Made by a program: the position numbers and the translations under genes. Under the pieces are notes generated by a model, which worked only from the letters and a program-made list of their open reading frames with translations, was not told where the DNA came from and searched no databases. From positions 2,088 to 66,087 of the forward strand of contig JBAQRU010000053.1 in assembly GCA_049296025.1 (NCBI GenBank): 64,000 nucleotides of DNA. The letters are read 5' to 3'. This document shows positions 17,785-64,000 of this stretch, piece by piece. Position 1 is the stretch's first letter; the number at the start of each line of letters is the position of its first letter. The DNA comes from Lysobacteraceae bacterium (GTDB lineage Bacteria > Pseudomonadota > Gammaproteobacteria > Xanthomonadales > Xanthomonadaceae).

Positions 17785-18006
17785 GGCGGTCTCCGGGGCG
17801 ATGGGGCCATCGAAGCCGCGGGGAGACCGGAGGGAAGCTGCTGCGCACGGATGACGAGGACACGACCGCGACGCGCAACCATCTTCACGGCGGACACAGG
17901 GTCCCCGCAGGAGTTGGCACCTTGTGGAAGCCTCGCGTTGGCGATGCCTCCATCAGGTTGCCCCGGCGTCTTCGGGCCTGTCCCTCAGCCGGTCTTGATG
18001 GATGGC
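17785..18006 (-). promoter_or_regulatory. SAM-I (S-box) riboswitch leader of metX-metB-hom (aptamer about 17879-18006, SD-sequestering platform 17787-17830)
   Basis: The minus-strand RNA reads CCAUCCAUCAAGACCGGCUGAGGGACAGGCCCGAAGACGCCGGGGCAACC...GGUGCCAACUCCUGC...GUGAAGAUGG. This matches the conserved S-box core. Downstream, CGGUCUCC can pair with GGAGACCG, which contains the metX Shine-Dalgarno. Confidence 0.8.
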
Positions 18007-27338: not shown

Positions 27339-27348
27339 CCATAAACTC

Positions 27349-46992: not shown

Positions 46993-47739
46993 ATGAAGAT
47001 CCTCGTCGGTTACAAGCGCGTGGTGGACTACAACGTCCGCATCCAGGTCAAGCCCGACGGCTCCGGCGTGGTCACCGATGGCGTCAAGCTGTCGCCCAAT
47101 CCCTTCGACGACATCGCGCTGGAAGAAGCCCTGCGCCTGCGCGACAAGGGCATCGCCACCGAAGTCGTGGTCGTCACCATCGCCCCGGCCGATGCCCAGC
47201 CGCATCTGCGCAACGGACTGGCGATGGGCGCGAATCGCGCCGTCCACATCGTCAGCGATGCCGGCATGCAGCCGCTCACCGCCGCCCGCGCGCTGCTGAA
47301 ACTGATCGAGAAGGAACAGCCCGATCTCGTGCTATTGGGCAAACAGGCGATCGACGACGACGCCAACCAGACCGGCCAGATGCTGGCCACGCTGTGGGGC
47401 CGCCCGCAGGCGACCTTCGCCGGCAAGCTCGACATCGCCGATGGCAAGGCCACGGTGGTGCGCGAAGTGGATGCCGGCCTGGAAACGCTGGAAATCGATT
47501 TGCCTGCCGTGGTCACCACAGACTTGCGCCTGAACGAGCCGCGCTTCATCAAGCTGCCGGACATCATGAAGGCCAAGAGCAAGCCGCTGGAAACCATCCA
47601 GTTCGCCGATCTTGGCGTCGAATCGGGCGACACCCTGAAGACCACCCACTACGCCCCGCCGGCCAAGCGCAGCAAGGGCGTGATGGTGAAGGACGCAGCC
47701 GAACTGGTCGCCGCGCTCAAGGCAAAAGGTCTGTTGTAA
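46993..47739 (+). CDS. etfB: Electron transfer flavoprotein beta subunit
   Basis: MKILVGYKRVVDYNVRIQVK... and LLGKQAIDDDANQTGQMLA. Confidence 0.9.
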   Translation: MKILVGYKRVVDYNVRIQVKPDGSGVVTDGVKLSPNPFDDIALEEALRLRDKGIATEVVVVTIAPADAQPHLRNGLAMGANRAVHIVSDAGMQPLTAARALLKLIEKEQPDLVLLGKQAIDDDANQTGQMLATLWGRPQATFAGKLDIADGKATVVREVDAGLETLEIDLPAVVTTDLRLNEPRFIKLPDIMKAKSKPLETIQFADLGVESGDTLKTTHYAPPAKRSKGVMVKDAAELVAALKAKGLL

Positions 47740-47744
47740 CGACT

Positions 47745-47855
47745 CGTCATCCCTGCGGACGCGGGAGTGTTTTTCAACAGCCGAAGGCTGGTCATCCAGC
47801 GACGCTCTCTTCATCCGCATCAAGACACTGGATTCCCGCATTCGCGGGAATGACG
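47745..47855. repeat. MITE/REP-like element inserted between etfB and etfA
   Basis: Imperfect 22-nt terminal inverted repeats: CGTCATCCCTGCGGACGCGGGA (47745-47766) and TCCCGCATTCGCGGGAATGACG (47834-47855). The right arm contains the hairpin TCCCGC-ATTC-GCGGGA. Confidence 0.55.
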
Positions 47856-47873
47856 GAACCAGAGGAATCACCC

Positions 47874-48812
47874 ATGTCCAAAGTTCTCATCGTTGCCGAA
47901 CATCTCGACGGCAAACTCAATGCCTCCACCGCCAAGTGCGTCTCGGCAGCGAAAGCGCTGAATCCCGACACTATCGATGTGCTGGTGCTCGCAGACGATC
48001 CGACCGGCGTTGCCACCGATGCCGCGACTCTTTCCGGCGTGTCGAAGGTGCTGACCCTCGCCAACGCCGCCAACGCGAACGCCATCGCCCAGGTGCTGGC
48101 GCCGCAGATCGCACAGGCCGCCGCTGGTTACAGCCACGTCTTCGGTCCCAGTACCACTTTCGGCAAGGACCTGATGCCGTGCGTCGCCGCCCTGCTGGGC
48201 GTGTCGCAGGTCTCCGACATCATGGCGGTCGACGGCAGCCACACCTTCAAGCGCCCGATCTACGCCGGTAACGCCATCATCACGGTCGAAGCCGCCGCCG
48301 ACCGCGTCGTGGTCGCCACCGTGCGCACCGCCTCATGGCCCGAAGCCGCGCGCGGTGGCAGCGCCACCATCGAAGTCATATCGATCGATGCCGCACTGCC
48401 TGGGCACACCCGCTACGTGAGCCTCGCCGCCGGCAAATCGGACCGCCCGGACCTGCAGAGCGCCCGTCGCGTGGTCTCCGGCGGCCGCGGCGTGGGCTCG
48501 GCCGAGAACTTCAAGATCATCTACGACCTGGCCGACAAACTCGGCGCTGGCGTGGGCGCCTCGCGCGCGGCGGTCGACGCCGGCTACGTACCCAACGAAA
48601 TGCAGGTCGGCCAAACCGGCAAGATCATCGCCCCGGAGCTGTACGTCGCCGTCGGCATCAGCGGCGCGATCCAGCACCTCACCGGCATCAAGGATGCCGG
48701 TACGATCGTCGCGATCAACAAGGACGGCGAAGCGCCGATCTTCGAGATCGCGGACATCGGCCTGGTCGGCGATCTGTTCAAGCTGCTGCCGGAGTTGCAG
48801 GCGGCGCTGTAA
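47874..48812 (+). CDS. etfA: Electron transfer flavoprotein alpha subunit
   Basis: [10 protein letters not shown].. and C-terminal FAD-binding [26 protein letters not shown]. Start at ATG 47874. Confidence 0.9.
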
Positions 48813-48834: not shown

Positions 48835-48866
48835 ACAAAAAAGAGCCGGGTTTCCCCGGCTCTTTG
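48835..48866. terminator. Shared convergent terminator (etfA / paralog 1)
   Basis: AGAGCCGGG-TTTC-CCCGGCTCT. The A6 tract on the plus side gives U6 after the hairpin on the minus strand. Confidence 0.7.
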
Positions 48867-48887: not shown

Positions 48888-50012
48888 TCAGCGCCCCGGC
48901 ACGCGGCAACAGTGGACCCAAGGCGTCACCACCTGCGCATTGCTGTCCAGGTTGTAGACGAAGAAATTGCCGGACGTCGGGCCCATGTAACCGTCCGCCA
49001 TCACCACCTTCTGCGCCGCCTGGAAGCCCGCATTGGTGGAGCCGTAGCCCGCAGGACAACTCACGCCGAATCCATAGCCATACGTGTTGGCAGGTACGCT
49101 GGCCGCTGAGCCGCTGACAGTGATGCATTCCAGTGCGGTCGCCGCCGGTGGCGCGAAATAGCCGAGGATATCCACGACGTAATGCGATTGCGCATTGCTG
49201 TAGATCGTGAAATCGGAGGTCGATACCGGGTTGGGTATCGTCGCGATCACACCATTGGCGGCGGTGACGCCCGCGTAGTAGTTGACGTTCGACGACAGCG
49301 GCTGGGTCGTGCCGAAGGGAAACACCGTGGTATAGCCGTTGGCGACCGGCGTCACCGCCGTGACGTTCAACGCCACCGCCGTGGCGTTCAGACCGAACGT
49401 TCCGCAGTTGGTCGCGCTTCCGCCCTGGCTGGTGAAATTGCTCGCATTGGTCGATACAAAATTCCGAGTCGAGTTCGCGGCAATCTGACCAGCGGCCGTA
49501 TTGCGCGTATCGACGATGCGGCATGGCTGGATGGGCGTATACACGAGGTCCTGGTTCAGATCGCCGAATTTGGCGGCGACAGCGCTGGGGGCATTGGCGC
49601 CAGGCGCGAGCTTGGCCAGCCGGTCGATCGCCTGGGTGTCGCTGAGACGACGCCCGATGCCCGACAACTCCGCCATGGCGCCTTCGAAGGTCTCGCGCTT
49701 GAGCGCGTTGCGGAAGTTGCTCGAATCCACGGTGACGAAGTTCGGCACCATCCGCTGCGCCCACGTGCCGACCGGAACGTTGTAGATCCGCTGCACGTAC
49801 GCTCCCCACTTGAGCACGAACTGGCGCGTGAGCTGGCCGCGTTCCTTCGGCGACAGCTTCGCAGCCGAAGCGGTTGCGGAAGAAGAAAGGGGCATGGTCG
49901 CGAACGCATGCTGCTTGCCCACGCGCACTGGTGTCTGTGCGCCCGCAGCCGTAGCAGATACCGCAAACGCAAACGACAAAACAGCAGCAGAATAATGAAA
50001 GGAACGAGCCAT
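48888..50012 (-). CDS. Secreted protein, tandem paralog 1 (helical N-region, PCRIVDTR beta-module, Cys-framed C-terminal cassette, CCRVPGR end)
   Basis: Signal peptide MARSFHYSAAVLSFAFAVSATAAGA. AGGAGA lies upstream of ATG 50012. Long near-identical blocks are shared with paralogs 2 and 3. Confidence 0.8.
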   Translation of the reverse strand: MARSFHYSAAVLSFAFAVSATAAGAQTPVRVGKQHAFATMPLSSSATASAAKLSPKERGQLTRQFVLKWGAYVQRIYNVPVGTWAQRMVPNFVTVDSSNFRNALKRETFEGAMAELSGIGRRLSDTQAIDRLAKLAPGANAPSAVAAKFGDLNQDLVYTPIQPCRIVDTRNTAAGQIAANSTRNFVSTNASNFTSQGGSATNCGTFGLNATAVALNVTAVTPVANGYTTVFPFGTTQPLSSNVNYYAGVTAANGVIATIPNPVSTSDFTIYSNAQSHYVVDILGYFAPPAATALECITVSGSAASVPANTYGYGFGVSCPAGYGSTNAGFQAAQKVVMADGYMGPTSGNFFVYNLDSNAQVVTPWVHCCRVPGR

Positions 50013-50160
50013 CTTTTTTCTCCTAAGATCGACCCTGCATGCGCTCTCAGACAAACACGCCAGCAGCAATAAAGTGGGGGATTTTCGACCAGAGGATGTT
50101 AAGCCGAAAGAATGATGACCGGAATTGCGCGACTTTCCCCCATACCGAGGCGTTGGGCCA

Positions 50161-51267
50161 TCAGCGCCCCGGCACGCGGCAGCACATGAGTTTCGCGGTC
50201 ACGTTCTGGGCATTGACGCTCAGGCTCCTGACGAAAATCTGCCCGGCATTGCCAGCGGTATAACTGTCCGCAACCAAGACATTCTCGCCCGCACTGATGG
50301 ACAGACCGGTAGGCGTGTAATTGGCCGGACAGAACAGCGTGGGAAGGGACACATATGCACCGGCGGCCACGCTGGTCGGGGTCCCGGCGACGGTCGTGCA
50401 ATCCAGAGCAGTGGCCAGCGGCGGCGCGAAATAGCCGAGGATATCCACGACGTAATGCGATTGCGCATTGCTGTAGATCGTGAAATCGGAGGTCGATACC
50501 GGGTTGGGGATCGTCGCGATCACGCCATTGGCGGCGGTGATGCCCGCGTAATAATTGACGTTGGACGACAGCGGCTGGACCGTACCGAATGGAAACACCG
50601 TCGTGTAACCGTTGGCGACCGGCGTCACCGCCGTGACGTTCAGCGCCACCGCCGTGGCGTTCAGACCGAACGTTCCGCAGTTGGTCGCGCTTCCGCCCTG
50701 GCTGGTGAAGTTGCTGGCATTGGTCGAAACGAAGTTCCGGGTCGAATTTGCGGCGATCTGGCCTGCGGCCGTGTTGCGCGTATCGACGATGCGGCATGGC
50801 TGGATGGGCGTATACACGAGGTCCTGGTTCAGATCGCCGAATTTGGCGGCGACAGCGCTGGCCGCATTCGCCCCCGGCGCGAGCTTGGCCAGACGGTCGA
50901 TCGCCTGGGTGTCGCTGAGACGACGCCCGGTACCGGACAGCTCCGCCATGGCACCTTCGAAGGTCTCGCGCTTGAGTGCGTTACGGAAATTGGTCGGATC
51001 GACCATCACGAAGTTCGGGACCATCCGTTTCGCCCACGTGCTGACGGGCACGTCGTAGATCCGCTGCACGTACGCTCCCCACTTGAGCACGAATTGACGC
51101 GTGAGCTGGCCGCGCTCACTCGGCGACAACTTCGTGGCGGAAACCGCTGTGGGCATGAGCCCGAGTTTCTTGTCCGTGCGCGCCGGCGTCTGCGCACAGA
51201 CGGTAGAAGTGAATACGGCAAATGCGAGTGCTGTTGTACCAACAGCGAAATGAATGGGTCTATCCAC
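50161..51267 (-). CDS. Secreted protein, tandem paralog 2
   Basis: Same architecture. Start set at GTG 51267 with GGAGA 7 nt upstream. The signal peptide ends ..FTSTVCA. Confidence 0.8.
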   Translation of the reverse strand: MDRPIHFAVGTTALAFAVFTSTVCAQTPARTDKKLGLMPTAVSATKLSPSERGQLTRQFVLKWGAYVQRIYDVPVSTWAKRMVPNFVMVDPTNFRNALKRETFEGAMAELSGTGRRLSDTQAIDRLAKLAPGANAASAVAAKFGDLNQDLVYTPIQPCRIVDTRNTAAGQIAANSTRNFVSTNASNFTSQGGSATNCGTFGLNATAVALNVTAVTPVANGYTTVFPFGTVQPLSSNVNYYAGITAANGVIATIPNPVSTSDFTIYSNAQSHYVVDILGYFAPPLATALDCTTVAGTPTSVAAGAYVSLPTLFCPANYTPTGLSISAGENVLVADSYTAGNAGQIFVRSLSVNAQNVTAKLMCCRVPGR

Positions 51268-51371
51268 TTTCTTATCTCCAACAAAGAGCGGCAATAAAAA
51301 CAGGAAACCAGGCTAACGGAGCGCGACCGACAACAGCGCGCAATTCCGGCTAGGCATCTTCGAAAAAGCAA

Positions 51372-51397
51372 CAAAAAGAGCCGGGGAACCCGACTCT
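51372..51397 (-). terminator. Rho-independent terminator after paralog 3
   Basis: The minus-strand RNA AGAGUCGGG-UUC-CCCGGCUCU is followed by UUUUU. Confidence 0.65.
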
Positions 51398-51423
51398 TTT
51401 TGTGTGCAGCAGCGTTGGACCGA

Positions 51424-52524
51424 TCAGCGCCCCGGCACGCGGCAGCAGGTCCGCGACGCGCGGAGATCCTGGGCGGTCGTGTCATTGTTCCGCGCCGAGC
51501 AGGTACCACTGTGGGAGAACACGATCGGCATCAACCAGCTCGACGTCTCACAGTTGGTCGCAGTCTGCGTGTAGCCTGCCGCGCAGGCCGGAGCGACTGC
51601 GTTCGCGGTACCGCCCGCAATGATGTCGGCGACAACGGTATTCGCGGTGTCCTGGCACTGCAGCGCAGTCGCCAGCGGCGGCGCGAAGTAGCCGAGGATA
51701 TCGACAACATAGTGCGACTGCGCATTGCTGTAGATCGTGAAATCGAACGACGAAAGCGGATTGGGAATCGTCGCGATCACGCCATTGGCGGCGGTGACGC
51801 CCGCGTAGTAGTTGACGTTCGACGACAGCGGCTGGGCCGTGCCGAAGGGAAACACCGTGGTATAGCCGTTGGCGACCGGCGTAACCGCCGTCACGTTCAA
51901 CGCCACCGCCGTAGCGCTCAGACCGAGCGTCCCGCAGTTGGTGGCACTGCCGCCCTGGCCGGTGAAGCTGGACGAATTGATCGCCACAAAGCTTCGTGTG
52001 CTGTTCGCCGCAATCGTCCCGGCAGCAGTCGAACGGGTGTCGATGATGCGGCAGGGCTGCAGCGGCGTGTAGACCAGATCCTGGTTCAGGTCGCCGAACT
52101 TGGCCACTACGGCATTCGGGCCGGATGCGCTTGCACCGGGCGCGAGCTTGGCCAGCCGATCAATCGCCTGGTTGTCGGTCAGTCGACGTCCGGCCCCCCC
52201 CAGCTCGGCCATCGCACCTTCGAACGTGTCGCGCTTGAGGGCGTTGCGGAAATTGGTGGTGTCGGCGGTAACGAAGTTCGGCACCATGCGTTTCGACCAG
52301 ACGCCTACGGGCACGCCGTAGACGCGTTGTACATACGCGCCCCATTTGGTCACAAATTGGCGGGTCAGCGCACCCCGCTCTTGCGGTGATGCGTTGCCTG
52401 CAGAGATCGTGGCGCGGCCCTGTCGCGCACCCGCAGCGCCGGGAGGCTGTGCGGACGCTGTTGCAGCGAATGCCGCAAGCGCGAGCGCCAGCATGCTGGC
52501 GGAAGAACGGAATCGTGTTGACAT
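51424..52524 (-). CDS. Secreted protein, tandem paralog 3
   Basis: Signal peptide MSTRFRSSASMLALALAAFAATASA. Same core (PCRIIDTR ... VDILGYFAPP) and the same CCRVPGR terminus. Confidence 0.8.
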   Translation of the reverse strand: MSTRFRSSASMLALALAAFAATASAQPPGAAGARQGRATISAGNASPQERGALTRQFVTKWGAYVQRVYGVPVGVWSKRMVPNFVTADTTNFRNALKRDTFEGAMAELGGAGRRLTDNQAIDRLAKLAPGASASGPNAVVAKFGDLNQDLVYTPLQPCRIIDTRSTAAGTIAANSTRSFVAINSSSFTGQGGSATNCGTLGLSATAVALNVTAVTPVANGYTTVFPFGTAQPLSSNVNYYAGVTAANGVIATIPNPLSSFDFTIYSNAQSHYVVDILGYFAPPLATALQCQDTANTVVADIIAGGTANAVAPACAAGYTQTATNCETSSWLMPIVFSHSGTCSARNNDTTAQDLRASRTCCRVPGR

Positions 52525-52951: not shown

Positions 52952-55276
52952 ATGCGCAAGCTTGCCCTTACCCTCACCGTAGCGCTCATCGTCGGCGGTT
53001 GTTCGTCCGAATCGGAGGTCGCGCAGAATACCGCGCAGGCCAGCGCGAATTCGAAGAACATCACTGCCCCGGCACAGGTACGCCGTCCCTCTACGGATCG
53101 CAAGAGCTCATTCGCGGCCATGCCCGATCGTGGCACCTTGCTGGCCTACGACCAAAGCCAGCAACCGCGCCATCGCGGCGCGCAGATCTATCACGCGGTT
53201 CAGCTCAGCGAAGCGCATGCATTGAACGCTGCGGCGCCCGGCAAGTCGATCGAACTGCCGATACCTTCTGGCGGTACGATGCGCATCAACTACGAGCGCC
53301 ATGAAGAAGGTCTCGACGGCAACTGGTCGTGGGTCGGCAAGACCGCGGATGGTTTCGATGCCGTGATCACCTTCGGCGAGAGCGCCGTGTTCGGTCGCAT
53401 CGCCCAGCGCGATACCGAAGCACTGCGTCTGACAATGTCCGCAGGCCGTTCCTGGCTGGTCGAAAGCGACCCGAGCAAAATGCTCGACGGCAACCTCGGT
53501 CGCGACTCCGACGAATCCGACGTGCTGATCCCGCGCAGCGTGGTGGCTGCCGCCAGCGCCAGAAAGCTCAATTCCGCCGCAATGACGGCTGCAGGCGATG
53601 AAGCGGCCAGCCCCTCCAGCACCGTTGATGTGGTTCTCGGTTACACGAACGGCCTGGTTACGAAGTACGGTAATGCCGCGAATGCGAATACCCGTTTGGC
53701 CAATCTCGTAGCCATCACCAATCAGGGCTACGTCAACAGTCTCGTCAGCCCGCGCATTCGCCTGGTCCGTACGGTGCAGGTCAGTTACACCGATACCAAC
53801 AGCAACGATACCGCGCTGGAAGCAGTGACCGGCTACACATGCACGACCTCAGGCTGCACCGCGCAGGCGGTTCCGACCGAGCTGGTGCCACTGCGTACCG
53901 CCCGCGACACCTACGGCGGCGATCTGGTTTCGCTGGTCCGCCCGTTCCAGGCGCCCCAGCATCAGGGTTGCGGTATCGCATGGTTGCTCGGCGGCGGCGG
54001 TTTCACCATCGACAACACCGACGCGCCGTTCGGCTATTCGGTCATCAGCGACGGCACCGACGTGGACGAAGGCGACGGCCGCACCTACTTCTGCCGCGAG
54101 GAAACCCTTGCCCACGAGCTCGGCCACAACATGGGCCAGCAGCACAACATCGAAGATGCGGGTACGCCGCCGGACACCGGCACGCACTCGTACTCGTACG
54201 GCTACCGCGAGGCGACCACAACCGGCTTCTATACCGTCATGGCTTACCGCCTGGCCAACAGCAGCCAGTTCTCGATCAACTATTTCGGCAACCCGAGCGT
54301 CAACTATGCCGATACCGGTCGCCCGACAGGCACCGCTACGGCCGACAACGTGCGCAGCCTGAATCTTTCGATGCCGCTTGTCGTGCAGTTCAAAACCGCG
54401 GTGGTGCCGTTCGACGGCGTACCCTCGATGATGAACATCTTCAAGATGGGCGGATCGGGCAAAACCGAAGTGCATACGCTCAGCGGCAGCAGCAACTATG
54501 CCAATTTCTCGCTGCATACGACCACGGTATTCCCTTACACCGGCTTCGACTGGGCGTGGGAATTCATCGCTGGCGATTACAACGGCGACGGCGTCAAGGA
54601 TCTGTACTCGATTTTCCGGATGGGCGCTTCCAATACCACCGAAGTGCATGTTCTCAACGGCGCATCCAGCTTCCAGACCTACCTGCTGAACACCGCAACG
54701 GCCTTGCAGCGCACAGGGACGGCCGACAACTGGATTTTCCGTCTGGGCGACTACAACGGCGACGGCAAACTGGACCTGTACTGCATCGCGCGTATGGGCC
54801 TGTCGGGCAAGACCGAGGTGCATATCCTCAACGGCGCCAACAGCTTCAGCACTTATCTGGCCAACGTCGCGACCGTGTTGCCCAGCACTGGCAACGATGG
54901 CGCATGGAACTTCGAGATCAACGATTGGAACAAGGACAACAAGCCGGACATCATCGTGATATTCAAGGCCGGCGCGAGTGGCAAAGTCGAGACGCATATT
55001 CTCAACGGCGCCAACAACTTCCAGTCCTATCTCTTGAACCGCGCAACCGCCCTGCCGCTCGTCCCCGTTGGTTATCTGTGGGATTTCAAGATCGGCGACT
55101 ACAACCTGGATGGCGTCACCGACATCTATGCGATCAAGCGCCAAGGCGCCGGCGGCTTGGTCGAGTTGAAGGTTCTCGATGGGCAGTCGTCGTTCCTGAC
55201 CATTTCCGCAGACATCACGACCGGGCAGTACAACGTACCAAGCAACAACAGTTGGGAGTTCGAGATCGTGAACTGA
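52952..55276 (+). CDS. Lipoprotein zinc metalloprotease (reprolysin/M12B-like HExxHxxGxxH) with C-terminal FG-GAP-like repeats
   Basis: Lipobox LIVGGC. Zinc site TLAHELGHNMGQQHN. Five repeats of about 65 aa with GDYNGDGxxDLY. Start set at ATG 52952. Confidence 0.85.
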   Translation: MRKLALTLTVALIVGGCSSESEVAQNTAQASANSKNITAPAQVRRPSTDRKSSFAAMPDRGTLLAYDQSQQPRHRGAQIYHAVQLSEAHALNAAAPGKSIELPIPSGGTMRINYERHEEGLDGNWSWVGKTADGFDAVITFGESAVFGRIAQRDTEALRLTMSAGRSWLVESDPSKMLDGNLGRDSDESDVLIPRSVVAAASARKLNSAAMTAAGDEAASPSSTVDVVLGYTNGLVTKYGNAANANTRLANLVAITNQGYVNSLVSPRIRLVRTVQVSYTDTNSNDTALEAVTGYTCTTSGCTAQAVPTELVPLRTARDTYGGDLVSLVRPFQAPQHQGCGIAWLLGGGGFTIDNTDAPFGYSVISDGTDVDEGDGRTYFCREETLAHELGHNMGQQHNIEDAGTPPDTGTHSYSYGYREATTTGFYTVMAYRLANSSQFSINYFGNPSVNYADTGRPTGTATADNVRSLNLSMPLVVQFKTAVVPFDGVPSMMNIFKMGGSGKTEVHTLSGSSNYANFSLHTTTVFPYTGFDWAWEFIAGDYNGDGVKDLYSIFRMGASNTTEVHVLNGASSFQTYLLNTATALQRTGTADNWIFRLGDYNGDGKLDLYCIARMGLSGKTEVHILNGANSFSTYLANVATVLPSTGNDGAWNFEINDWNKDNKPDIIVIFKAGASGKVETHILNGANNFQSYLLNRATALPLVPVGYLWDFKIGDYNLDGVTDIYAIKRQGAGGLVELKVLDGQSSFLTISADITTGQYNVPSNNSWEFEIVN
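54430..55273 (+). repeat. Five in-frame coding repeats of about 195 nt (FG-GAP/VCBS-like blades) within the metalloprotease gene
   Basis: Recurrent ..F(K/R)MG.SG.TEVH.LNGA..F.TYL...AT.L..TG....W.F..GDYNGDG..DLY.. Confidence 0.7.
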
Positions 55277-55415: not shown

Positions 55416-57557
55416 TCAGCGACGCGGGGGAAAACCCAATCCGGACGCGGCCGTGTCCGATTCGAGATTGGGGTTGTAAGCAGGATCGGCGTCGAGCCAA
55501 TCGCCCCAACGCTCACGCATGAGGCGGCTCTCGCGATCGCCTTGCAGCCTGTCCTCGGGCCTGATGCCCATACCGCGACTCACTGACTCGTGGTGCAGCA
55601 ACTCGGCGAAAGGCGTCCAGATCACGCGCAAGCCCGCTCGCCGTAGACGCAGGCACAGGTCGACATCGTTATAGGCGACGGCCAAGGATTCGTCGAATCC
55701 TCCAACCGCAAGAAACACCTCTCGACGTATCGCCAGGCAAGCAGCCGTGACCGCAGAGAGCCCCTGGACCAGGCGCGCCCGGTTCATATGGCCGGAGATA
55801 TCGGCGGGCTGTCGCCGATAGGCGTTCGCCGCGATCCCTTCGACACCGAGAAAGATACCGGCGTGCTGGATCCGGCCATCCGGGTAGTACAGCTTGGCGC
55901 CGACCGCGCCCACTTCCGGCCGACATGCCTGCGCCACCATCTCCTCCATCCAGCCGGGCGACAGCGCTTCGATATCGTCGTTGAGCAACAGCAGCACCTC
56001 GCCCCGCGCCTCAGCGGCCAGTCGATTGTTGAGCGCGGAAAAATTGAACGGGCTCGCGTCTCGGAACAGGCGAACATGGTCACGACTTGCCAGCCTGTCG
56101 AGCAGCTCCGCCGTGCGCGGCTGCAGCGAGCCGTTATCGACGATCAAGAACTCGCATCGGACAGCGCCACGCGTCGCTTCCACCGATTGCACGCAACGCT
56201 CCAGCATATCGGGTTGGTCGCGAGTAGGGATCAGGACGCTCACCTGCGGCGGCGGCGATGGAAGCCGGTGGATCACGCGATAGTTGCCTGGCTGCTCAGG
56301 CAGCGCCACGACTTCGGCGTGCTGTCCGCTACGTGCGAGATGGTCCCCGATCGCGCGCAGCGCAGCATCTTGCGCATAGGGTTTCACACCGGAAGCCGCA
56401 GCAGTGGATCCCGCCCATGCGCGCCAGTGATAGAGCACCCGGGGGATATGCCCAAGGCCTTCAGGTCCAAGCCGCTCGGCTACACGCAGCACCAGATCCC
56501 AATCCTGACTGCCATCGCAGATGCTGCGGAAGCCGCCGACGGTCCCGATCAGATCCCGTCGGATCGCGGTGAGGTGACTGATGCAATTGTGGGCACACAG
56601 CAAGTCCGGATTGAAGTCGGATTTGAAGTACGGATCGCTGCGAACGCCGTCGTCGTCGATTTTGTCCTCGTCGGTATAGACGAGCCCCCATTCGGGATGG
56701 GCGACGAAAGCGCTCGCGAGTTCGCGCAATGCATCCGGATGCAAGAGATCATCGTGGTCCAGCAACGCCACGATATCGCCGCTGGCGATTCCGATCGCGG
56801 ACTGGGTCGCCGCCGAAATATGCCCGTTGCGCTCGCGCCGCAACCAACGCACCCGTGCATCCCGCGCGGCATAAGCGCCGATCATCGCAGGCACGCCTGG
56901 ATCGGTGCTCGCGTCGTCGGCGATGCAGAGTTCCCAGCGGGTATAGCGTTGCGCCAACAGGCTGTCGATACATGCACGCAGATGGTCCAACCGGGGGTTG
57001 TAGACCGGCATCGTCACCGAGATGAGAGGCGCATCGACCCGATCATCGACATCACCCCCATAGAGCACAGGCACGTCGTCGTAGAGCCGCAACCAGTCGC
57101 GATAAGAACCGCCGGCCGCGCCGTCGATATCGCTGCGATAGGCGGCATACAGCCAGTCACCGACTCTGCGTCGGTCGCCGCGGGCGAGAATCCGCAGCCC
57201 GTGGATCCAGTCTGCAGGGCCCAGGCGCCCGACCAACGCCATTGCCATGCGTAACGCTGCGCGCCCCATGCCGAGGGAGCGCAGAGTGATTTCGCATCCT
57301 CGCAATGCGTCGGCTTCAAGCCCGCCATCGGTGAGGGCGCATGACATCGCACGCCGTTGCAGCAGGACGATGACTGACAGCGTGCGTCCATCGTCCGAAA
57401 CGAATCGCGAAAGCCTGATGCGATCGGAGAGACGCGGTCCGCTGCCGTCGTCGGGCGTCAGCGTGGGCCCGGAGAACTTGCCACCCGGGCCAAGTCGCGC
57501 GCGAAGGGCGTACCAACCAGGCGCGAAAGGACCCGTGCCGATCGTCCGCGAGGTCAT
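55416..57557 (-). CDS. Large glycosyltransferase with two GT2 domains
   Basis: Two GT2 cores (ISVTMPVYNPRLDHLRACIDSLLAQ..ADDAS..LDHDD and VSVLIPTRDQPDMLERCV..VDNGS..LNDD). Start uncertain: ATG 57557 or 57623. Confidence 0.8.
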   Translation of the reverse strand: MTSRTIGTGPFAPGWYALRARLGPGGKFSGPTLTPDDGSGPRLSDRIRLSRFVSDDGRTLSVIVLLQRRAMSCALTDGGLEADALRGCEITLRSLGMGRAALRMAMALVGRLGPADWIHGLRILARGDRRRVGDWLYAAYRSDIDGAAGGSYRDWLRLYDDVPVLYGGDVDDRVDAPLISVTMPVYNPRLDHLRACIDSLLAQRYTRWELCIADDASTDPGVPAMIGAYAARDARVRWLRRERNGHISAATQSAIGIASGDIVALLDHDDLLHPDALRELASAFVAHPEWGLVYTDEDKIDDDGVRSDPYFKSDFNPDLLCAHNCISHLTAIRRDLIGTVGGFRSICDGSQDWDLVLRVAERLGPEGLGHIPRVLYHWRAWAGSTAAASGVKPYAQDAALRAIGDHLARSGQHAEVVALPEQPGNYRVIHRLPSPPPQVSVLIPTRDQPDMLERCVQSVEATRGAVRCEFLIVDNGSLQPRTAELLDRLASRDHVRLFRDASPFNFSALNNRLAAEARGEVLLLLNDDIEALSPGWMEEMVAQACRPEVGAVGAKLYYPDGRIQHAGIFLGVEGIAANAYRRQPADISGHMNRARLVQGLSAVTAACLAIRREVFLAVGGFDESLAVAYNDVDLCLRLRRAGLRVIWTPFAELLHHESVSRGMGIRPEDRLQGDRESRLMRERWGDWLDADPAYNPNLESDTAASGLGFPPRR

Positions 57558-57650
57558 GGAAGCGATGCCGTCATGCCGACACCCACGATGTCCCCGCACG
57601 CCCCCTGACTTCGCAGAACGCACGTACGGGCAATCACCGGGAGCTGCCCC

Positions 57651-58103
57651 TTATGGCGTAGCGGTCTCTTCTGGATTCGGCAGCGGCCGCGGGTCTTCGG
57701 GAATCGAGCTGAACTCCTCTGGAGTGATGTAGATCACCTTGTGCGGGTCATAGCCATTGGCGGCGGGCCATTGGTCATCGGTGATCCAGCGGCGCATGCC
57801 GTCCTTCACGAGGAACCAGCCATCATCTTTGCCACGGCCGGCCTCCGGCTGATGGACGATCTGGTTGTCGTATTTGAGTGCCGCCGCGCTGGCAGGTTCC
57901 GTCACTGCACCTGCGGTATCGGCGGGCGCCCCATCCACAGCCGCAGGCGCCGGTGTCGCCGCGACAGGCGGCGGAACATCCTGTTGGACAGTCTCCGGCG
58001 CGGCCGCGGTATCGGTTGGCGCTGGCGCTTCGCCGCAGCCTGAGATGAGCAAGCCGGTCATAACGACGAGGACCGCCGTCAGGCGATTCGATTGCACAGT
58101 CAT
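57651..58103 (-). CDS. Lipoprotein with a Pro/Ala-rich linker, unknown function
   Basis: Lipobox LISGC, then a low-complexity PA-rich stretch and a 70-aa C-terminal globular part. Confidence 0.6.
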   Translation of the reverse strand: MTVQSNRLTAVLVVMTGLLISGCGEAPAPTDTAAAPETVQQDVPPPVAATPAPAAVDGAPADTAGAVTEPASAAALKYDNQIVHQPEAGRGKDDGWFLVKDGMRRWITDDQWPAANGYDPHKVIYITPEEFSSIPEDPRPLPNPEETATP

Positions 58104-58107
58104 GTTG

Positions 58108-59811
58108 TCACTCCTGTTTCGGTTGAGATGTCTGATGTTCGTTTATGTGCTTCGGATCGGTATCGCTGAATTCGATTTCGACAATGAATTCGTTGGTACC
58201 TGGTTGCGTCTCGGTAACGCGGAGAACCCGCATCACCGGTACATGGAATTCCGCGACATACGCAAGCAGGCTGCGCATGTTCCCAGGCGTGAAAGTGAAG
58301 CAGTGGACGTCCACTGTCGACAGGTCAACCGCGAGCGCCATCCTGGCCGCTTCAACCGGGTCATGCGTCGGCTTGGGAACATGATCGCCACGCCACGCCG
58401 CATCAGTCGAGATCGAGAAATCCGCATGCGAGTAGTAGTCGTGAACCATCGCACGCGATGGATTCCTGAGCTTCATTTCGTGGGCGGAAATGATATCCCG
58501 AATATCGGTTTCGGTTCTGAGCAGGTCGAAAGTGTAGCGCTTGTCGGGTACCCACATGAGCAGCTTGCCGCCGTCCACGAGAATCCTGGCGGCCGACTTG
58601 AAGAACTGGATGAAGTCGGGAACATGTTCGATGACGTGACTCGACACCAGATAGTAATAACGGCCATGCTCCAGTACTTCGTCGATCAATCGATCGCCAA
58701 GCACGATATCCACCTGCACCGGGGCGCCGTCGAGATAGGTGCCCGCAGGCCCCAAGTGATCGACCTTGTCGAGATATTCGACCTCGAACTGCCCCTTGTC
58801 GAGCATCGGCGCAGCCCCCGGCGACATTTCCACGCCCGGTTTTTTCTCCAGACCGCGCAGACGCGACACCAGCGGAAACGATCGCGAGTAATGCAGATCC
58901 TCGCCGAAAGCCGTGGCGAGCCCCTCTTCCGGCTCGAGCAGCACAGGGTCGCGCTGCGCCAGCCCCAGATACTCGAGCATGAGCGGCGAGCGGATCCAGC
59001 GTAGGCTCCGGTTCTCAACCAACATCAGCTTGTCTCTGTGCGGCGCGGAAACCGCGTTGACGAGGCAGCCCTCCAGTCCTTCGAGCGCGACCGTATCGAT
59101 CGATCGACGCAATTCCGTACGCAGTTCCACGAGCCGCCGAAGCGCCACGGAGTCGATATCGCGCTCGCCGGACACGCGGAAAACCAGTAGATGGTCGCCG
59201 CTGCGGTCATCCCGCGCCAGCAACACCTCGCCGCCGCGCCCGGCGATACTTGCGGCGGTTTCGACAACGAAACGCAGGGTGTCACTGTTGAATACATGCC
59301 TGTTGGCCGCGCTGTGTTCACCAAGCACCGCCACATAGGCCAGACCTGCCGCTTCTTCCTTGGTCTTTCCCTCCAGCTCGCCCGCGTCCGACCAGCTCCA
59401 CAGATGCGCGGCAATATGCTCGCGATTCTCGTAATCCCCATCGCGCGTGCGGAACGCATAGTCCAGCAGGAAATGCGATGGCGGCGTGGGCAGACGCAGA
59501 TTGTCGCGAGTGGTTTTCCGGTTCGGCGCACTCAGATAGAGAATGCCATCGTCCCTCAACAGCGAAATCCAGCCGATCAGGGTCTGGATGGCGTCAGCCG
59601 ACCGCTGCAATCCCCGGTGCGCGACCACGAAGTCCAACGAGCCTGCAGCGATATCATCATCCGCTGCGCAGAAACGCGCATCCGGATGTACGCACACCTG
59701 TACCTCACCCGCATCGAGTCCGAGGCCCCGGCAATACAATATCCCGAGCCGGTCCCTGCCTTCATCGGCAGGCAAGCGCGAGATGGGTGTCGCCACGCTA
59801 TCGCCCATCAT
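58108..59811 (-). CDS. Class I SAM-dependent methyltransferase-like protein with two MTase-like modules
   Basis: C-terminal module YYYLVSSHVIEHVPDFIQFFKSAARILVDGGKLLMWVPD. N-terminal module LDFVVAHRGLQRSADAIQTLIGWISLLRDDGILYLSAPN. Confidence 0.7.
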   Translation of the reverse strand: MMGDSVATPISRLPADEGRDRLGILYCRGLGLDAGEVQVCVHPDARFCAADDDIAAGSLDFVVAHRGLQRSADAIQTLIGWISLLRDDGILYLSAPNRKTTRDNLRLPTPPSHFLLDYAFRTRDGDYENREHIAAHLWSWSDAGELEGKTKEEAAGLAYVAVLGEHSAANRHVFNSDTLRFVVETAASIAGRGGEVLLARDDRSGDHLLVFRVSGERDIDSVALRRLVELRTELRRSIDTVALEGLEGCLVNAVSAPHRDKLMLVENRSLRWIRSPLMLEYLGLAQRDPVLLEPEEGLATAFGEDLHYSRSFPLVSRLRGLEKKPGVEMSPGAAPMLDKGQFEVEYLDKVDHLGPAGTYLDGAPVQVDIVLGDRLIDEVLEHGRYYYLVSSHVIEHVPDFIQFFKSAARILVDGGKLLMWVPDKRYTFDLLRTETDIRDIISAHEMKLRNPSRAMVHDYYSHADFSISTDAAWRGDHVPKPTHDPVEAARMALAVDLSTVDVHCFTFTPGNMRSLLAYVAEFHVPVMRVLRVTETQPGTNEFIVEIEFSDTDPKHINEHQTSQPKQE

Positions 59812-59859
59812 TGGTTATGCCCTCTTTTCATCGTTCGACCGATACGCATGCACCGACGG

Positions 59860-61614
59860 TCACGGCGCCCCGCGCAGGACCCGTGCCTGCCATTGCAACA
59901 TCACGACCACCGTCCACAACCACAGCGAGTGCTCCTTGCGGCCTGCGTAATGATCGTCCGCATCCCGACGCAATGCGGCGAAATCGATGTACTCAGCAAA
60001 CGGCCCCGCAGACTGCGCGGCGATCATCTCATACACCCTCGGCTTCATCGTTTTCAGCAGATCCGCGACCGGCACCGAGAACCCCATCTTCTTGCGCTCG
60101 ATCACCGAAGCCGGCAGCTTCGTCGCGAATGCGCGCCTGAGCAGCGACTTTCCGCCTTGCCCGCCGAGTTTGCAGGACTCGGGAAGCGCCGATGAGAATT
60201 CCAGGAGTGCCGGGGAGAGGAACGGGAAGCGGCCTTCCAGCGAATGCGACATCAGTATCTTGTCAGCCTTCGCCATCAGGTTCTCGGGCAACCAGGTCTT
60301 CTGGTCGAACGCCAGCATCCCATTGAGCGGCGAACGCTCGTCGAAGTAAATCTTCTGACGCATGTGGCGTGTCGGGTCGACATCTGTCCTGAGCGGCTTT
60401 CCGCCCGTGAAGTACCAACTCAGCTCCATGAACCGTCGAAACAGTTCCTCCACATTGGCCACATGCGCTCGCGCCCCGTGCGCGTGCTGCGGATAGCCCG
60501 CGAACATCTCGTCGCTGCCCTCTCCGGACAACACCACGGTGACTTTGCGCTTGATCGATTCGCAGAGGATATGCAGTGGGAAACAGGCCGGGTCGGCGAT
60601 CGGCTCATCCATCGCCGCGACGACGCGCTCGAAGCGCTCGGCGATGTCGGCAGGCGTGGTCTCCACCGCGACATGCGGCATCCCGAAACGGGTCGCGACC
60701 TCTTCCGCATAGGCGAATTCGTTGAGATCCGGGAAACCGATGCTGAAGGACGTCATCGACACGCCGATATCCGCGCACAGCGATGCGATCACGCTGGAAT
60801 CCAGGCCGCCACTGAGCAACAGACCGATCGGTACATCAGACATCTGCTGCTGCGCGACCGAGGCGCGCAACAGCGCGACCAGACGTTCCGCGGCTTCGTC
60901 CTCCGGCATATCGATCGCGTTCTCGTTCAGCGGCAGGTCCCAATAGCGCCAGGTCGTCGCCAAACCGCGGCTGATCTTCACGTAGGTGCCCGCCTCGACC
61001 CGGCGGATATTGCGGAAGAACGTCCCCGGAGCGACGACGTAGCGATAGGTGAGATATGCCGATAGACCAACCGGGTCCACTGCGAGGTCGGCGCCTGGAA
61101 TGCGCAACAACGGCGTCAGTTCGCTGCTGAACGCGAAGCGATAGGCATCCTCGTAGAGATACAGCGGCTTGATGCCGAGATGATCGCGGACCAGATAGAA
61201 CTCGCCCTCTTCGCTTCGGCGGAAGTCCCAGATGAATGCGGTGAACATGCCGTCGAAACGTGCGAAACAATCCGTCCCCTCTTCTTCGTACAGGGCCAGG
61301 AACAGTTCGGTGTCGCAATCGGTCTCGAACACTCTGCCGCGCGCTTCAAGATCGGCGCGCAGTTGCCTGAAATTGTAGATCTCGCCGTTATAGGCGATGC
61401 CCACCAGGCCATCGGCCGAACGCATCGGCTGCTGGCCATGGGTGACGTCGATGATCGACAGCCGCCGATGCACCACCGCATAGCCAGGACCGCAATGCAC
61501 ACCGCCCTCGTCGGGGCCGCGATGGAACAGCATGCGATCGAGTTCGCCCAGGAAACCGAGCTCGCGCTCGCCCAAGGCACCTTGTTTGGAGACGAATCCA
61601 GCGTATCCGCACAT
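59860..61614 (-). CDS. asnB: Asparagine synthase (glutamine-hydrolysing) family amidotransferase
   Basis: N-terminal MCGYAGF (Ntn Cys2) and the PP-loop LLSGGLDSS. Confidence 0.9.
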   Translation of the reverse strand: MCGYAGFVSKQGALGERELGFLGELDRMLFHRGPDEGGVHCGPGYAVVHRRLSIIDVTHGQQPMRSADGLVGIAYNGEIYNFRQLRADLEARGRVFETDCDTELFLALYEEEGTDCFARFDGMFTAFIWDFRRSEEGEFYLVRDHLGIKPLYLYEDAYRFAFSSELTPLLRIPGADLAVDPVGLSAYLTYRYVVAPGTFFRNIRRVEAGTYVKISRGLATTWRYWDLPLNENAIDMPEDEAAERLVALLRASVAQQQMSDVPIGLLLSGGLDSSVIASLCADIGVSMTSFSIGFPDLNEFAYAEEVATRFGMPHVAVETTPADIAERFERVVAAMDEPIADPACFPLHILCESIKRKVTVVLSGEGSDEMFAGYPQHAHGARAHVANVEELFRRFMELSWYFTGGKPLRTDVDPTRHMRQKIYFDERSPLNGMLAFDQKTWLPENLMAKADKILMSHSLEGRFPFLSPALLEFSSALPESCKLGGQGGKSLLRRAFATKLPASVIERKKMGFSVPVADLLKTMKPRVYEMIAAQSAGPFAEYIDFAALRRDADDHYAGRKEHSLWLWTVVVMLQWQARVLRGAP

Positions 61615-61620
61615 ATGTCG

Positions 61621-64000
61621 TTATCCCACGATGCGCTTGAGCAGCGCGGACCATTCCGCGAGGTAGCGGTCCTGGTTGAAAAGTTGCATCGCGGTGCGCC
61701 GCGAAGCCTGGCGCATCGCATCCGCCCGCTGTGGATTCGCTGCGAGCCACGCGAGTTGTTCCGCCAACTCGGCGGCGCTGTCGCCGAAGAATCCGTTGAC
61801 ACCGTTCTTGATGAACAGGTCCGCATCGTGATTGCGCATCGATACGGACACCAGCCCGGCCATCATCGCCTCACCGCGTGAACGCGGCATCGGCGAGCGC
61901 AGCGTGGTGTTGAGGTAGGTCTTGTAGCGCCCGATCTCGCGGACATAGTTCTGGTACTTCGCGGTCGCCCACGCGGCGGTGCCGGCCTCATACCCATCCG
62001 GGTCCGGTGTGCGCAGACAGTCGATCGTCGCGATATCGCCGGTGCGCGCACCCACCTCGTCATAGACGAACAGACCGTTGTAGTGCGGACGATTCCGCAG
62101 CGCATTGATGTTCATCGCCAGCACGTCGCGGTCATGCGCACCGGGCGGGAAATCGCACGGTGCGAAGCCATGCCAAATCGTCGTGGCATTCGCGAAACCC
62201 CATTCGGCGCGCGCCTGGTGACTGTTGCACACAACGGCGACATCAGCGAAGAGCTCGACGATCTCGCGTCGACTGGACTCGATCACAGCACCGAGATCGG
62301 AGCCTGCGTAGCCGCCATCGTATTGTCCGGCGAATTGCGGGGTGCCATGACAGATCGCCACGCCCGGCAGGTGGGCATTGCGCAACAGCCAGAGCATGGT
62401 CGCGCCCCAATCGGCCGGCACCATGCCTTGACAGCGTTCCGGATGAAGCAGGTTTTCGTCGAAGTGCAGGATCTTCGCGTCGTATTCCCGCGGATCGATC
62501 TCGTCGTAACGGACCATCCGGCAATTTTTCGGCATCGGCCGCTTATCCCACTCCCATTGCTCGCACAGGCCGGTTCCGGCGCCGGTGATCAGATCGAACT
62601 GGTGCCCGGTCTTGTAGAGCTCGTACTGGTGAGGCACGTGCCAGCGATGGGTGAGGATGCGCAATCGGCGACTGCGATCGATCACGATGGGTACGGCGCG
62701 ATAGCGCTGGAAACGTTTCTCCAGCCAGCGGAAATCGTCGTTGGCGTCGAGATCCGCGCCGACATGGCGTGCCCAGCCAACGATCGCCTCATAAGTCTGA
62801 GTCGCCCAGCGTCGCGAAGCCAGCAACAGGTCCGGGTGTTTCTCGAACAGCCGGCGATAGTTCCGCAACGAGCGCAATGGCTTCTCCGCCTCGTTCGCCG
62901 AGGACGGATGGCTGACGTGAATCGAAACCGTATCTTCGAGATACTTGATGCGCGCACCGGCTTGATACAGGCGCACACCCATTTCCACGTCTTCCCAGCC
63001 GAAGCCGGATGCGGGATCGGCCGAATAGCTGAACGCCTCATCGAACAGCGGGCCATCGACCCTGTTCGCGGCGAACTCGCGCGATACCGAGAAATTGCGG
63101 GTGATGCAATTGACGAACGACGCCTGATTGAGATCGTCCTGGGGCAGATTCTCGTATGCGGCAAGGCGCGGATCGGCCTCGTGGCGGCCAAGCACGGACA
63201 GCGCAGGAGCGTCGTTGGTCTCGATATTGATCGGACCGATCGCGACGTCGCAGTCGCCCATGGCATGGGCTGCGTAATGCGCGGCGAGAAAATCGCAGTT
63301 GAACATGCAGTCGGCGTCGACCACGATGACGATATCGCCACGGGCCTCGGCGATGCCGCGATTCCGGCTGCCGCAGTTGCCGAGATTGCGCTCGTTGCGC
63401 ACGATCCGCAGATCGACCTGACGCCGACGCGCTTCGGGCACCCAGCGTTCGAACTCGCGCACGACCTCGACCGAATCGTCCGGGGTCGCGTCGTCCATCA
63501 GGACGATCTCGTAGCGTCCGGCAAAGTCCTGGCGATACAAACCCTCCAGGAAGTAGCGCACTTCCCTGGCCTTGCGATACAGCACCGAAACCACGGTGAC
63601 GTACGGCGTTTCGCGCGCCGGGTCGGGCTTGGCGCTCACCCGCTGGCGCGTCGCGCCCTTCAACAACGCGCCATAGATGGCAACAGCCTCGTGTACGGCG
63701 TTGCCGATGTCGAAACGCGGTGCGATCTCCCGCTGTGCCGCGGCGCCCAACGCTGCACGTAGCGACGCATCGCCGACCAGCGCGGACAGCGCCACATGCC
63801 ATTCCTCCTCGCTGGCCGCCAGGAACCCGTTCTTGCCGCTGGCGATGACCGCCCTGAACGGCGCGGTGGGAGAAGCGATGGTGGGCACGCCCAACAGCGC
63901 CGCTTCGAATAATTTCAATTCACTCTTGCAGTCGGTGAAATCGTTACCCGATTCCAGCGGCGCGAGATTGACATCGATCTTCGCCAACTCCGCGAGCATA
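61621..64000 (-). CDS. Multi-domain glycosyltransferase (GT1/GT4-like, GT2, GT1-like); 5' end off the window
   Basis: The frame is open to the window edge. GT2 core VTVVSVLYRKAREVRYFLEGLYRQ..LMDDATPDDS..VDADC, flanked by GT1-type E..K.FEA...G.P..AS and SRGEAMMAGLV segments. Confidence 0.8.
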   Translation of the reverse strand, partial: MLAELAKIDVNLAPLESGNDFTDCKSELKLFEAALLGVPTIASPTAPFRAVIASGKNGFLAASEEEWHVALSALVGDASLRAALGAAAQREIAPRFDIGNAVHEAVAIYGALLKGATRQRVSAKPDPARETPYVTVVSVLYRKAREVRYFLEGLYRQDFAGRYEIVLMDDATPDDSVEVVREFERWVPEARRRQVDLRIVRNERNLGNCGSRNRGIAEARGDIVIVVDADCMFNCDFLAAHYAAHAMGDCDVAIGPINIETNDAPALSVLGRHEADPRLAAYENLPQDDLNQASFVNCITRNFSVSREFAANRVDGPLFDEAFSYSADPASGFGWEDVEMGVRLYQAGARIKYLEDTVSIHVSHPSSANEAEKPLRSLRNYRRLFEKHPDLLLASRRWATQTYEAIVGWARHVGADLDANDDFRWLEKRFQRYRAVPIVIDRSRRLRILTHRWHVPHQYELYKTGHQFDLITGAGTGLCEQWEWDKRPMPKNCRMVRYDEIDPREYDAKILHFDENLLHPERCQGMVPADWGATMLWLLRNAHLPGVAICHGTPQFAGQYDGGYAGSDLGAVIESSRREIVELFADVAVVCNSHQARAEWGFANATTIWHGFAPCDFPPGAHDRDVLAMNINALRNRPHYNGLFVYDEVGARTGDIATIDCLRTPDPDGYEAGTAAWATAKYQNYVREIGRYKTYLNTTLRSPMPRSRGEAMMAGLVSVSMRNHDADLFIKNGVNGFFGDSAAELAEQLAWLAANPQRADAMRQASRRTAMQLFNQDRYLAEWSALLKRIVG

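Follow-up and report, generated by a model that had tools for sequence, protein, structure and literature searches.

The A, B and C chains of C1q are heterotrimeric jelly-roll proteins encoded by tandem genes. In clostridia, three tandem copies of CWB2, a domain with an alpha/beta fold, form one pseudo-threefold accessory unit on secreted or surface enzymes. In Pseudomonas aeruginosa, the metzincin Mep72 is secreted by the type II secretion system (T2SS) and is co-expressed with the inhibitor BamI (PMC4334185). Here we compare these and other systems with three tandem genes, A, B and C, found in a 64,000-nucleotide stretch of DNA from a Lysobacteraceae bacterium (the window; NCBI GenBank assembly GCA_049296025.1, contig JBAQRU010000053.1, positions 2,088 to 66,087 of the forward strand). 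Their products are exported paralogues that all end in the heptapeptide CCRVPGR, and each mature protein is made of a helical domain, a flexible linker, one jelly-roll module (called RxxDTR here after its motif) and a Cys-framed head of about 85 residues. We propose, with a probability of about one half, that they are secreted or surface binding proteins, lectin- or adhesin-like and probably oligomeric, with interchangeable heads. We are far more confident of the structure and evolution in this proposal than of the function.

The RxxDTR module has the same predicted fold class as carbohydrate-binding modules (CBM) 6/16/22, TNF/C1q-like heads, phage fibre tips and viral capsids. Like the CBM-type jelly rolls, it is extracellular and joined to secreted hydrolases and adhesin-type domains. 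It differs from them in that it has no sequence membership in Pfam, NCBIfam or PDB, weak Foldseek matches, a signature of its own and a closed three-module arrangement. By analogy, the array shares with the C1q A/B/C chains adjacent paralogous genes, a common core and a jelly roll that elsewhere seems to work in threes. However, there is no C1q/TNF sequence match, the variable part here is a separate C-terminal head, and oligomerisation is something that we infer. In general terms, clostridial CWB2 resembles the three-module RxxDTR proteins, where three tandem copies likewise appear as an accessory unit, but its fold is alpha/beta, Pfam CWB2 is not matched, and the window proteins have a single module and an extra head. 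The ending itself may be compared with PEP-CTERM, GlyGly-CTERM and LPXTG, which are also short, strongly conserved motifs at the extreme C-terminus of exported proteins. Unlike these, CCRVPGR lacks a transmembrane helix or basic cluster behind it, is found in a single domain family and contains cysteines that would form disulfides. Finally, as with Mep72 and BamI, the gene of a putatively secreted metzincin-type protease adjoins genes whose exported products are small or of medium size and have an unknown fold. In the present case, only the metzincin domain is matched, transcription is divergent and the array family also occurs without the protease.

The three genes correspond to the minus-strand open reading frames (ORFs) 48888..50069, 50161..51294 and 51424..52524. 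Listing and translation of the ORFs recovered each of them with CCRVPGR directly before the stop, exactly where the original prediction, made by reading the DNA alone, had put three tandem same-strand paralogues with this ending; no further ORF of the window has it. The motifs quoted in that prediction (LTRQFV.KWGAYVQR, PCRI[VI]DTR, ALNVTAVTPVANGYTTVFPFG and VDILGYFAPP) are likewise all present. The likely starts are ATG 50012 for gene A, with an AGGAGA ribosome-binding site (RBS) 6 nt upstream, GTG 51267 for gene B (368 aa), after a GGAGA RBS, and ATG 52524 for gene C, also preceded by GGAGA. The spacing from RBS to start is 6-8 nt in the three genes. At the protein level, A is 77% identical to B and 67% identical to C in pairwise comparison. 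When the three are aligned, the helical and beta parts are nearly invariant and the divergence falls in the last ~80 residues. The N-termini of A, B and C read as Sec-type signal peptides ending in AGA, VCA and ASA, respectively, before a Q (ATAAGA followed by QTP in A, TSTVCA followed by QTP in B), in agreement with the signal peptides predicted before.

The conservation of the ending is far beyond chance. It takes the form CCR[VIL]PGR in 120 of the best 120 homologues, so that the heptapeptide is conserved outside the array as well; 111 of them have RTCCRVPGR, and a single one has two extra residues after the motif. Of 147 family ORFs taken from the window and 72 related loci, 128 end in CCRVPGR, 16 in CCRIPGR and 2 in CCRMPGR, while one carries two extra residues. 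Representatives down to ~35% identity show point variants only, such as CCRVRGR, CCTVPGR, CCQLPGR, CCKLPSGR and CA[QR]IPGR. All credible ORFs with a C..PGR end in the 1.05 Mb of related loci belong to the family. In addition, metagenomes were scanned with a back-translated pattern, and the 80 loci fetched contain 88 CCRVPGR-stop sites. Of these sites, 45 belong to ORFs in which module and head domain are both present. The other 43 comprise contig-end and other fragments, a module-bearing ORF (L136) whose module falls below the cutoff of the hidden Markov model, tiny Arg-rich out-of-frame ORFs, and one further locus, L144. Tiny ORFs of this kind are typical of chance matches in GC-rich DNA. L144 (metagenome contig Ga0075163_10203937) is a 251-aa ORF with a type-1-like head and CCRVPGR after an unrelated N-terminal beta-rich region, and it has no RxxDTR module; its makeup shows the head to be a separable domain. 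Neither the related loci nor the metagenome scan yielded a credible non-family protein with such an end. The scans show that the CCRVPGR ending belongs to the head domain and is no portable tag.

The framework of the head consists of ATALxC, then CPxGY, then an optional extra Cys pair and finally CC(RVPGR), which gives 4 or 6 cysteines; the heads of the paralogues are 24-40% identical to each other in amino acid sequence. Two natural variants, P0203 (CIQIPGR, 2 Cys) and P0190 (CARIPGR, 4 Cys), lack both the first head Cys and the second tail Cys. This co-loss suggests two pairs, one formed by the first head Cys and the second tail Cys, the other by the CPxGY Cys and the first tail Cys. The same pattern speaks against a vicinal disulfide within CC. 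Most likely, therefore, two disulfide staples tie the last strand onto the head domain, and such a double staple would account for the invariant CC. The tail had originally been read as, among other things, a disulfide-locked tip, and this reading is supported by the two variants.

The paralogues do not diverge evenly along their length. Between A and B, synonymous divergence (dS) is 0.28 in the module, 0.44 in the helical domain, 1.05 in the head and 1.22 in the signal region, and the ratio of nonsynonymous to synonymous divergence (dN/dS) lies between 0.04 and 0.16 for the core and between 0.55 and 0.74 for the head. In comparison with the closest relative, L001 ('uncultured Xanthomonas sp.', 87% identical), the nucleotide identity of the helical and module parts is 0.90-0.96 between A and B within a genome versus 0.88-0.90 between orthologues, whereas that of the head is 0.86-0.94 between orthologues versus 0.56-0.58 between paralogues. 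This reversed pattern in core and head shows that gene conversion homogenises the core of A and B and ends at the head boundary. The comparison shows A and B keeping their own distinct heads, which are conserved between orthologues, and C evolving separately. Across the loci there are ~5 recurrent head types, and arrays mix them. Type 0, the head of copy C, is the commonest and the usual type of singletons; type 1 is that of copies A and B. The L001 array (8001-11591) contains the same three paralogues as the window array (48888-52524); counted from the protease gene, their order is C, A, B in L001 versus C, B, A in the window, which suggests that the array has been rearranged since the lineages split.

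The fold of copy C was modelled with AlphaFold2 (AF2) from a 123-sequence alignment, with a mean predicted local distance difference test score (pLDDT) of 79. Residues 1-42, which cover the signal-peptide region, are disordered in the model. A helical region of about 120 aa had been expected to follow; it is present but shorter, with ~80 aa (residues 47-125). This domain is conserved within Lysobacteraceae and is divergent or absent in other family members. A disordered linker (residues 126-145) leads to the beta module (residues 151-281, pLDDT ~90), in which C158 and C197 probably form a disulfide, and then to a C-terminal beta domain (residues 289-362). The last strand of the latter, 352-362, ends at the CC pair; the final four residues, VPGR, lie beyond it and are modelled with lower confidence. 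In a Foldseek search with this model, the best matches have E-values of 5e-3 (PDB) and 2.7e-4 (BFVD), with a query-normalised template-modelling (TM) score of <=0.25. All matches are jelly rolls: viral coat or capsid proteins, CBM6/16/22, TNF/C1q-like proteins, and phage fibre tips and knobs. APRIL, collagen VIII NC1 and BC2L-C-Nt are matched at E 0.05-0.12. The modelled module is thus a beta-sandwich of the jelly-roll type, as would be expected of a CBM or lectin, with weak support from Foldseek. As far as the model goes, Foldseek assigns the module a fold class and no family.

Several other matches were set aside. A profile of the helical domain aligned over 46 residues with residues 47-92 of WaaC, the E. 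coli lipopolysaccharide (LPS) heptosyltransferase I, in the PDB (E 0.009). This match is not relied on here because it covers a fragment of a Rossmann-type domain, whereas the window domain is predicted to be all-helical; it is marginal and, although it fits the LPS theme, too weak to interpret. For the head domain, the best PDB match (E 0.14) and a 'CPxG' likeness to collagen IV NC1 (E 1.2) were both dismissed as chance, and hhalign found the domain unrelated to the Lcl_C-containing protein P0131.

The module occurs far beyond this family. When HMMER was run exhaustively against 1.84 billion cluster representatives (50% identity), 16,518 of them matched at E<=1e-3. The statement in the original prediction that the module recurs in unannotated actinobacterial proteins was correct, 'hypothetical protein' entries of Streptomyces being an example, and the actual spread is much wider. 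In a plasmid collection, the sole matches are proteins called 'hypothetical' by PGAP that are encoded by Streptomyces plasmids. No homologue of the module was found in a phage genome collection, which leaves a weak Foldseek match to an Arthrobacter phage endolysin unsupported. Among the best 150 representatives, ~100 are single-module proteins of ~350 aa with the architecture of the window proteins. The other ~40 are long multidomain proteins with 2 to 7 RxxDTR motifs, three being the commonest number. Their fusion partners include RCC1-like propellers, fn3, Ig-like and FG-GAP domains, subtilase, M10 and M8 peptidases, SpoIID, CBM60, Calx-beta, Lcl_C and S-layer domains, which are uniformly extracellular. 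Pfam and NCBIfam scans of 40 multi-module relatives left the module region uncovered. Judging from these sequences, the module serves as an accessory module outside the cell and is very widespread.

The signature of the module is TPxRxxDTR ... QGG...C ... H.V.D..GYF. Its polar residues R159, D162, T163, R164, Q190, N238, N247, D261, H271 and D275 (numbered as in copy C) are invariant in 123 family members; of these, R, D, T, R and two Asn recur in all modules of the three-module proteins. Six representatives (P0224, P0229, P0237, P0239, P0246 and P0251) are circularly permuted: the first module has no TPxRxxDTR strand, and that strand sits instead at the end of the protein, 13 residues from the C-terminus. 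Regardless of the body on which this strand packs, the N- and C-terminal ends have to come together in one of the two classes, canonical or permuted, which implies that the three tandem modules close into a ring. An AF2 model of the minimal three-module protein P0132 (predicted TM score 0.70, pLDDT 67, six-sequence alignment) fits a defined compact arrangement. Foldseek found no solved structure in the PDB with the same arrangement (query-normalised TM <=0.22), the matches being generic jelly rolls and CBM arrays.

No existing family description covers the window proteins. A, B and C gave no match to Pfam or PHROGs at E<=1 apart from noise, and none to NCBIfam or PADLOC profiles. No C1q/TNF and no CBM family of Pfam is matched by the window proteins. 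The best PDB match of the family profile (E 0.81) is noise, and a literature search for the motif turned up no paper. The family had been called uncharacterised, and so it is, since the profile and structure searches place the proteins in no well-characterised family. A homologue search covering 5.8 billion proteins found 983 homologues, the best 120 of which are ~365 aa long and 61-94% identical. The names given by the sources are all 'hypothetical', and the sources are metagenome-assembled genomes of Xanthomonadales, Lysobacter and Arenimonas; in cluster look-ups, nearly all members are unnamed metagenome proteins. A species-level genome scan gave 188 coding matches from Lysobacteraceae (Arenimonas, Lysobacter, Thermomonas, Pseudoxanthomonas, Luteimonas and Cognatilysobacter) and a few Betaproteobacteria. 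Cultured carriers include Arenimonas metalli CF5-1, Pseudoxanthomonas mexicana and Cognatilysobacter terrigena. By these homologues, the window comes from a gammaproteobacterium of Lysobacteraceae type and not from an actinobacterium. The family is therefore large, without a name and mainly found in Lysobacteraceae.

The features of the array and its surroundings are collected in Table 1. The hairpin after gene A was seen by reading the sequence and is not listed by the consensus terminator scan, and neither approach revealed a clean terminator-like hairpin after gene B.

Table 1. Features of the gene array and of the genes around it, in window coordinates
Feature	Position	Strand	Remarks
etfB/etfA	46993-48812	+	Flank the array
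Terminator-like hairpin 3' of gene A	48837..48865	-	AAAGAGCCGGGGAAACCCGGCTCTTTTTT; between the array and convergent etfA
Gene A	48888..50012	-	Exported paralogue, 374 aa, head type 1 (4 Cys)
Gene A tail CCRVPGR	codons 48891-48911, stop 48888-48890	-	
Gene B	50161..51294	-	Paralogue, head type 1 (4 Cys); mechanical ORF start TTG 51294
Gene B tail CCRVPGR	codons 50164-50184	-	
Intrinsic-terminator-like hairpin just 3' of gene C	51371..51403	-	15-bp stem and T-run
Gene C	51424..52524	-	Paralogue, 366 aa, head type 0 (6 Cys)
CCRVPGR tail of C	51427..51447	-	Modelled last beta-strand ends at the Cys pair
Cys-framed C-terminal head domain of C	51427..51672	-	Residues 285-366
Jelly-roll RxxDTR beta-sandwich module of C	51673..52074	-	Residues 151-284, Cys C158 and C197; predicted
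N-terminal helical domain of C	52150..52386	-	Residues 47-125, five short helices, pLDDT ~85-94
Signal peptide of C	52450..52524	-	MSTRFRSSASMLALALAAFAATASA, followed by QPP; read from sequence
Reprolysin-like (M12B) metalloprotease with FG-GAP repeats	52952..55276	+	Divergent neighbour, probable start ATG 52952
Glycosyltransferase/methyltransferase/asparagine synthase cluster	55416-63999	-	

In the window, the order is GMC oxidoreductase, etfB and etfA on the plus strand, the array on the minus strand, the M12B protease on the plus strand and polysaccharide-type genes on the minus strand. The latter encode a double GT2 glycosyltransferase, a methyltransferase, an asparagine synthase and a GT1/GT2 protein. 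The protease matches Reprolysin_4, Reprolysin_5, Reprolysin_3 and FG-GAP of Pfam, and at its probable start the N-terminus (MRKLALTLTVALIVGGC) is lipobox-like, resembling a lipoprotein signal. Against the NCBIfam Mep72 equivalog it scores 87.5 bits, compared with a cutoff of 645, and only the metzincin domain aligns. The same gene order is found in other genera, and GDP-heptose-type sugar-nucleotide genes lie past the protease in two of the three syntenic contexts inspected. When ORFs were clustered over 72 related loci, 145 family ORFs were found in 71 loci, in arrays of 1-7 copies. Such a survey of copy number and neighbourhood, suggested at the outset, brought out etfA and the protease as recurrent neighbours: the protease is found in 26 loci, etfA in 21, etfB in 18 and the GMC oxidoreductase in 17. 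Singletons have unrelated surroundings of a housekeeping kind, with proS, ftsK or a desaturase gene close by. In Xanthomonas and Stenotrophomonas, a hypervariable LPS O-antigen cluster is placed between metB and etfA (PMC2238763), so that the arrays occupy the etfA edge of an LPS-type locus.

Elsewhere in the window, there is a SAM riboswitch on the minus strand at 17876-18004 (RF00162, 66.5 bits, E 2.8e-13). A low-GC stretch at ~8-10 kb (GC 0.51 vs ~0.63 elsewhere) lies inside the gene of a 1220-aa hybrid sensor kinase (6239-9901, minus strand) with Reg_prop, Y_Y_Y, HisKA, HATPase and receiver domains. A second low-GC island (26178-27876, minus strand, GC 0.49) contains the genes of a DUF4062 protein (386 aa) and a CBS-domain protein (175 aa), and it may have been horizontally acquired.

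How could proteins of this kind work? Under the binding-protein proposal, they would be exported via Sec, form their disulfides in the periplasm and then, we suppose, leave through the T2SS, a route typical of Xanthomonadales. The single-module proteins would assemble through the jelly-roll module into trimers, possibly mixed ones. Outside the cytoplasm, the assembled proteins would bind a surface glycan or another extracellular ligand, with the variable head setting the specificity of binding. An adhesin-, lectin- or toxin-like role had been proposed for the array before, and it is plausible. A more specific version can also be imagined, in which the module would work as a closed three-fold ring and, in the manner of C1q, homo- or heterotrimers with different stapled heads are mixed and matched to bind the cell's own or a competitor's surface polysaccharide. 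Gene conversion would then keep the trimerisation core compatible between paralogues, and the conserved PGR-COOH tails would join a ligand site or an inter-subunit site. Binding of a polysaccharide would fit the position of the array at a variable LPS locus. This version is tentative, and we think it rather unlikely as a whole.

Several points weigh against the proposal. For all family members, the ligand, the location and the oligomeric state are inferred. The Foldseek matches are weak, and 'lectin-like' consequently rests on the fold class and on the fusion partners of the module. Trimerisation of the single-module proteins would be an extrapolation from the three-module proteins, whose own model is of moderate confidence only (pLDDT 67, six sequences) and superposes poorly on a TNF-type trimer (single-chain APRIL-BAFF-BAFF, query-normalised TM 0.22). 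The disulfide pairing is based on two natural variants, not on coordinates or chemistry, and the staple does not explain the strict conservation of RVPGR. Moreover, in view of the contexts of the singletons, the link to the LPS locus and the protease may only reflect where arrays expand.

The conservation of RVPGR beyond what the cysteines explain is also an argument for another reading of the tail, considered originally as well, in which CCRVPGR is a signal for sorting, processing or anchoring at the C-terminus. It would be recognised by a dedicated enzyme or secretion machinery that then cleaves or attaches the protein; the neighbouring metalloprotease, whose gene adjoins in 26 of the 72 loci, is a possible candidate. 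In the model, the last four residues lie outside the final strand at lower confidence and could be accessible. However, known C-terminal sorting signals have a hydrophobic helix or basic cluster after the motif, and reading the sequence reveals no hydrophobic segment or basic cluster here, the stop following five residues past CC. A sorting tag would be expected in several unrelated families; this tail is restricted to head-domain ORFs in the 1.05 Mb of loci and among the 88 metagenome matches, with no convincing carrier outside the family. No sortase-, exosortase- or rhombosortase-like gene is among the conserved neighbours of the related loci, singletons keep the tail with neither the protease nor another conserved partner nearby, and both tail cysteines behave as structural disulfide partners. 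We therefore consider a sorting signal unlikely. The protease might matter in a different way, if the array encoded its partners, substrates or inhibitors, by analogy with Mep72-BamI or AprA-AprI. Array and protease are adjacent across genera, and a metzincin co-expressed with a neighbouring inhibitor, Mep72, provides a precedent (PMC4334185). On the other hand, array and protease gene are transcribed away from each other, C and A are each followed by a separate terminator-like hairpin, and many family members are singletons with no protease of this kind anywhere near. The neighbour, far below the Mep72 cutoff, is no Mep72 equivalog, and 1-7 paralogues with different heads would be unexpected for a dedicated inhibitor. 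A role as protease partners thus seems improbable.

Arrays of paralogues with a common core and divergent heads could also encode diversified secreted antagonists, bacteriocin- or toxin-like, in which the head is a receptor-binding tip and the helical and jelly-roll parts carry the activity. At the level of the fold, phage fibre tips are among the matches, as are the CBM-like domains of Vip3 and Cry toxins. The family occurs in Lysobacteraceae, many of which are known as antagonists of other microbes. Yet no toxin domain was detected with Pfam or NCBIfam, there is no immunity-like small gene among the conserved neighbours, and nothing matches PADLOC or PHROG. The heads, moreover, are conserved between orthologues and not hypervariable. 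We would give this reading little credence. An even slimmer chance is left for the RxxDTR module as an enzyme, its active site formed by the polar residues listed above. Their invariance in 123 family members, and the retention of R, D, T, R and two Asn throughout the three-module proteins, would suit catalysis. However, the fold matches are non-catalytic jelly rolls, and the module is typically attached to proteins with catalytic domains of their own (subtilase, M10, SpoIID), which is the behaviour of an accessory module.

We return to the proposal of secreted or surface binding proteins with interchangeable heads. What is new here is the description at the level of the family, a module without a curated model, ring closure via circular permutation, and the double-stapled C-terminus. 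The jelly-roll fold class and the logic of an accessory binding module plus a variable tip are already familiar, and known biology is not contradicted. The module, with over 16,000 clusters that range from proteobacteria to Streptomyces, has no name, curated profile or solved structure, and the same is true of the family. Hundreds of 50%-identity clusters end in C(C)xxPGR, and the arrays reach seven genes per genome. The domain boundaries, the putative ring closure and the probable double staple offer annotators a concrete new domain family to model. If the glycan-binding reading is false, a well-delimited 'domain of unknown function' will remain. If it is true, and assemblies with exchangeable heads bind glycans and are encoded at the LPS locus, the finding would bear on how Lysobacteraceae build and recognise cell surfaces.

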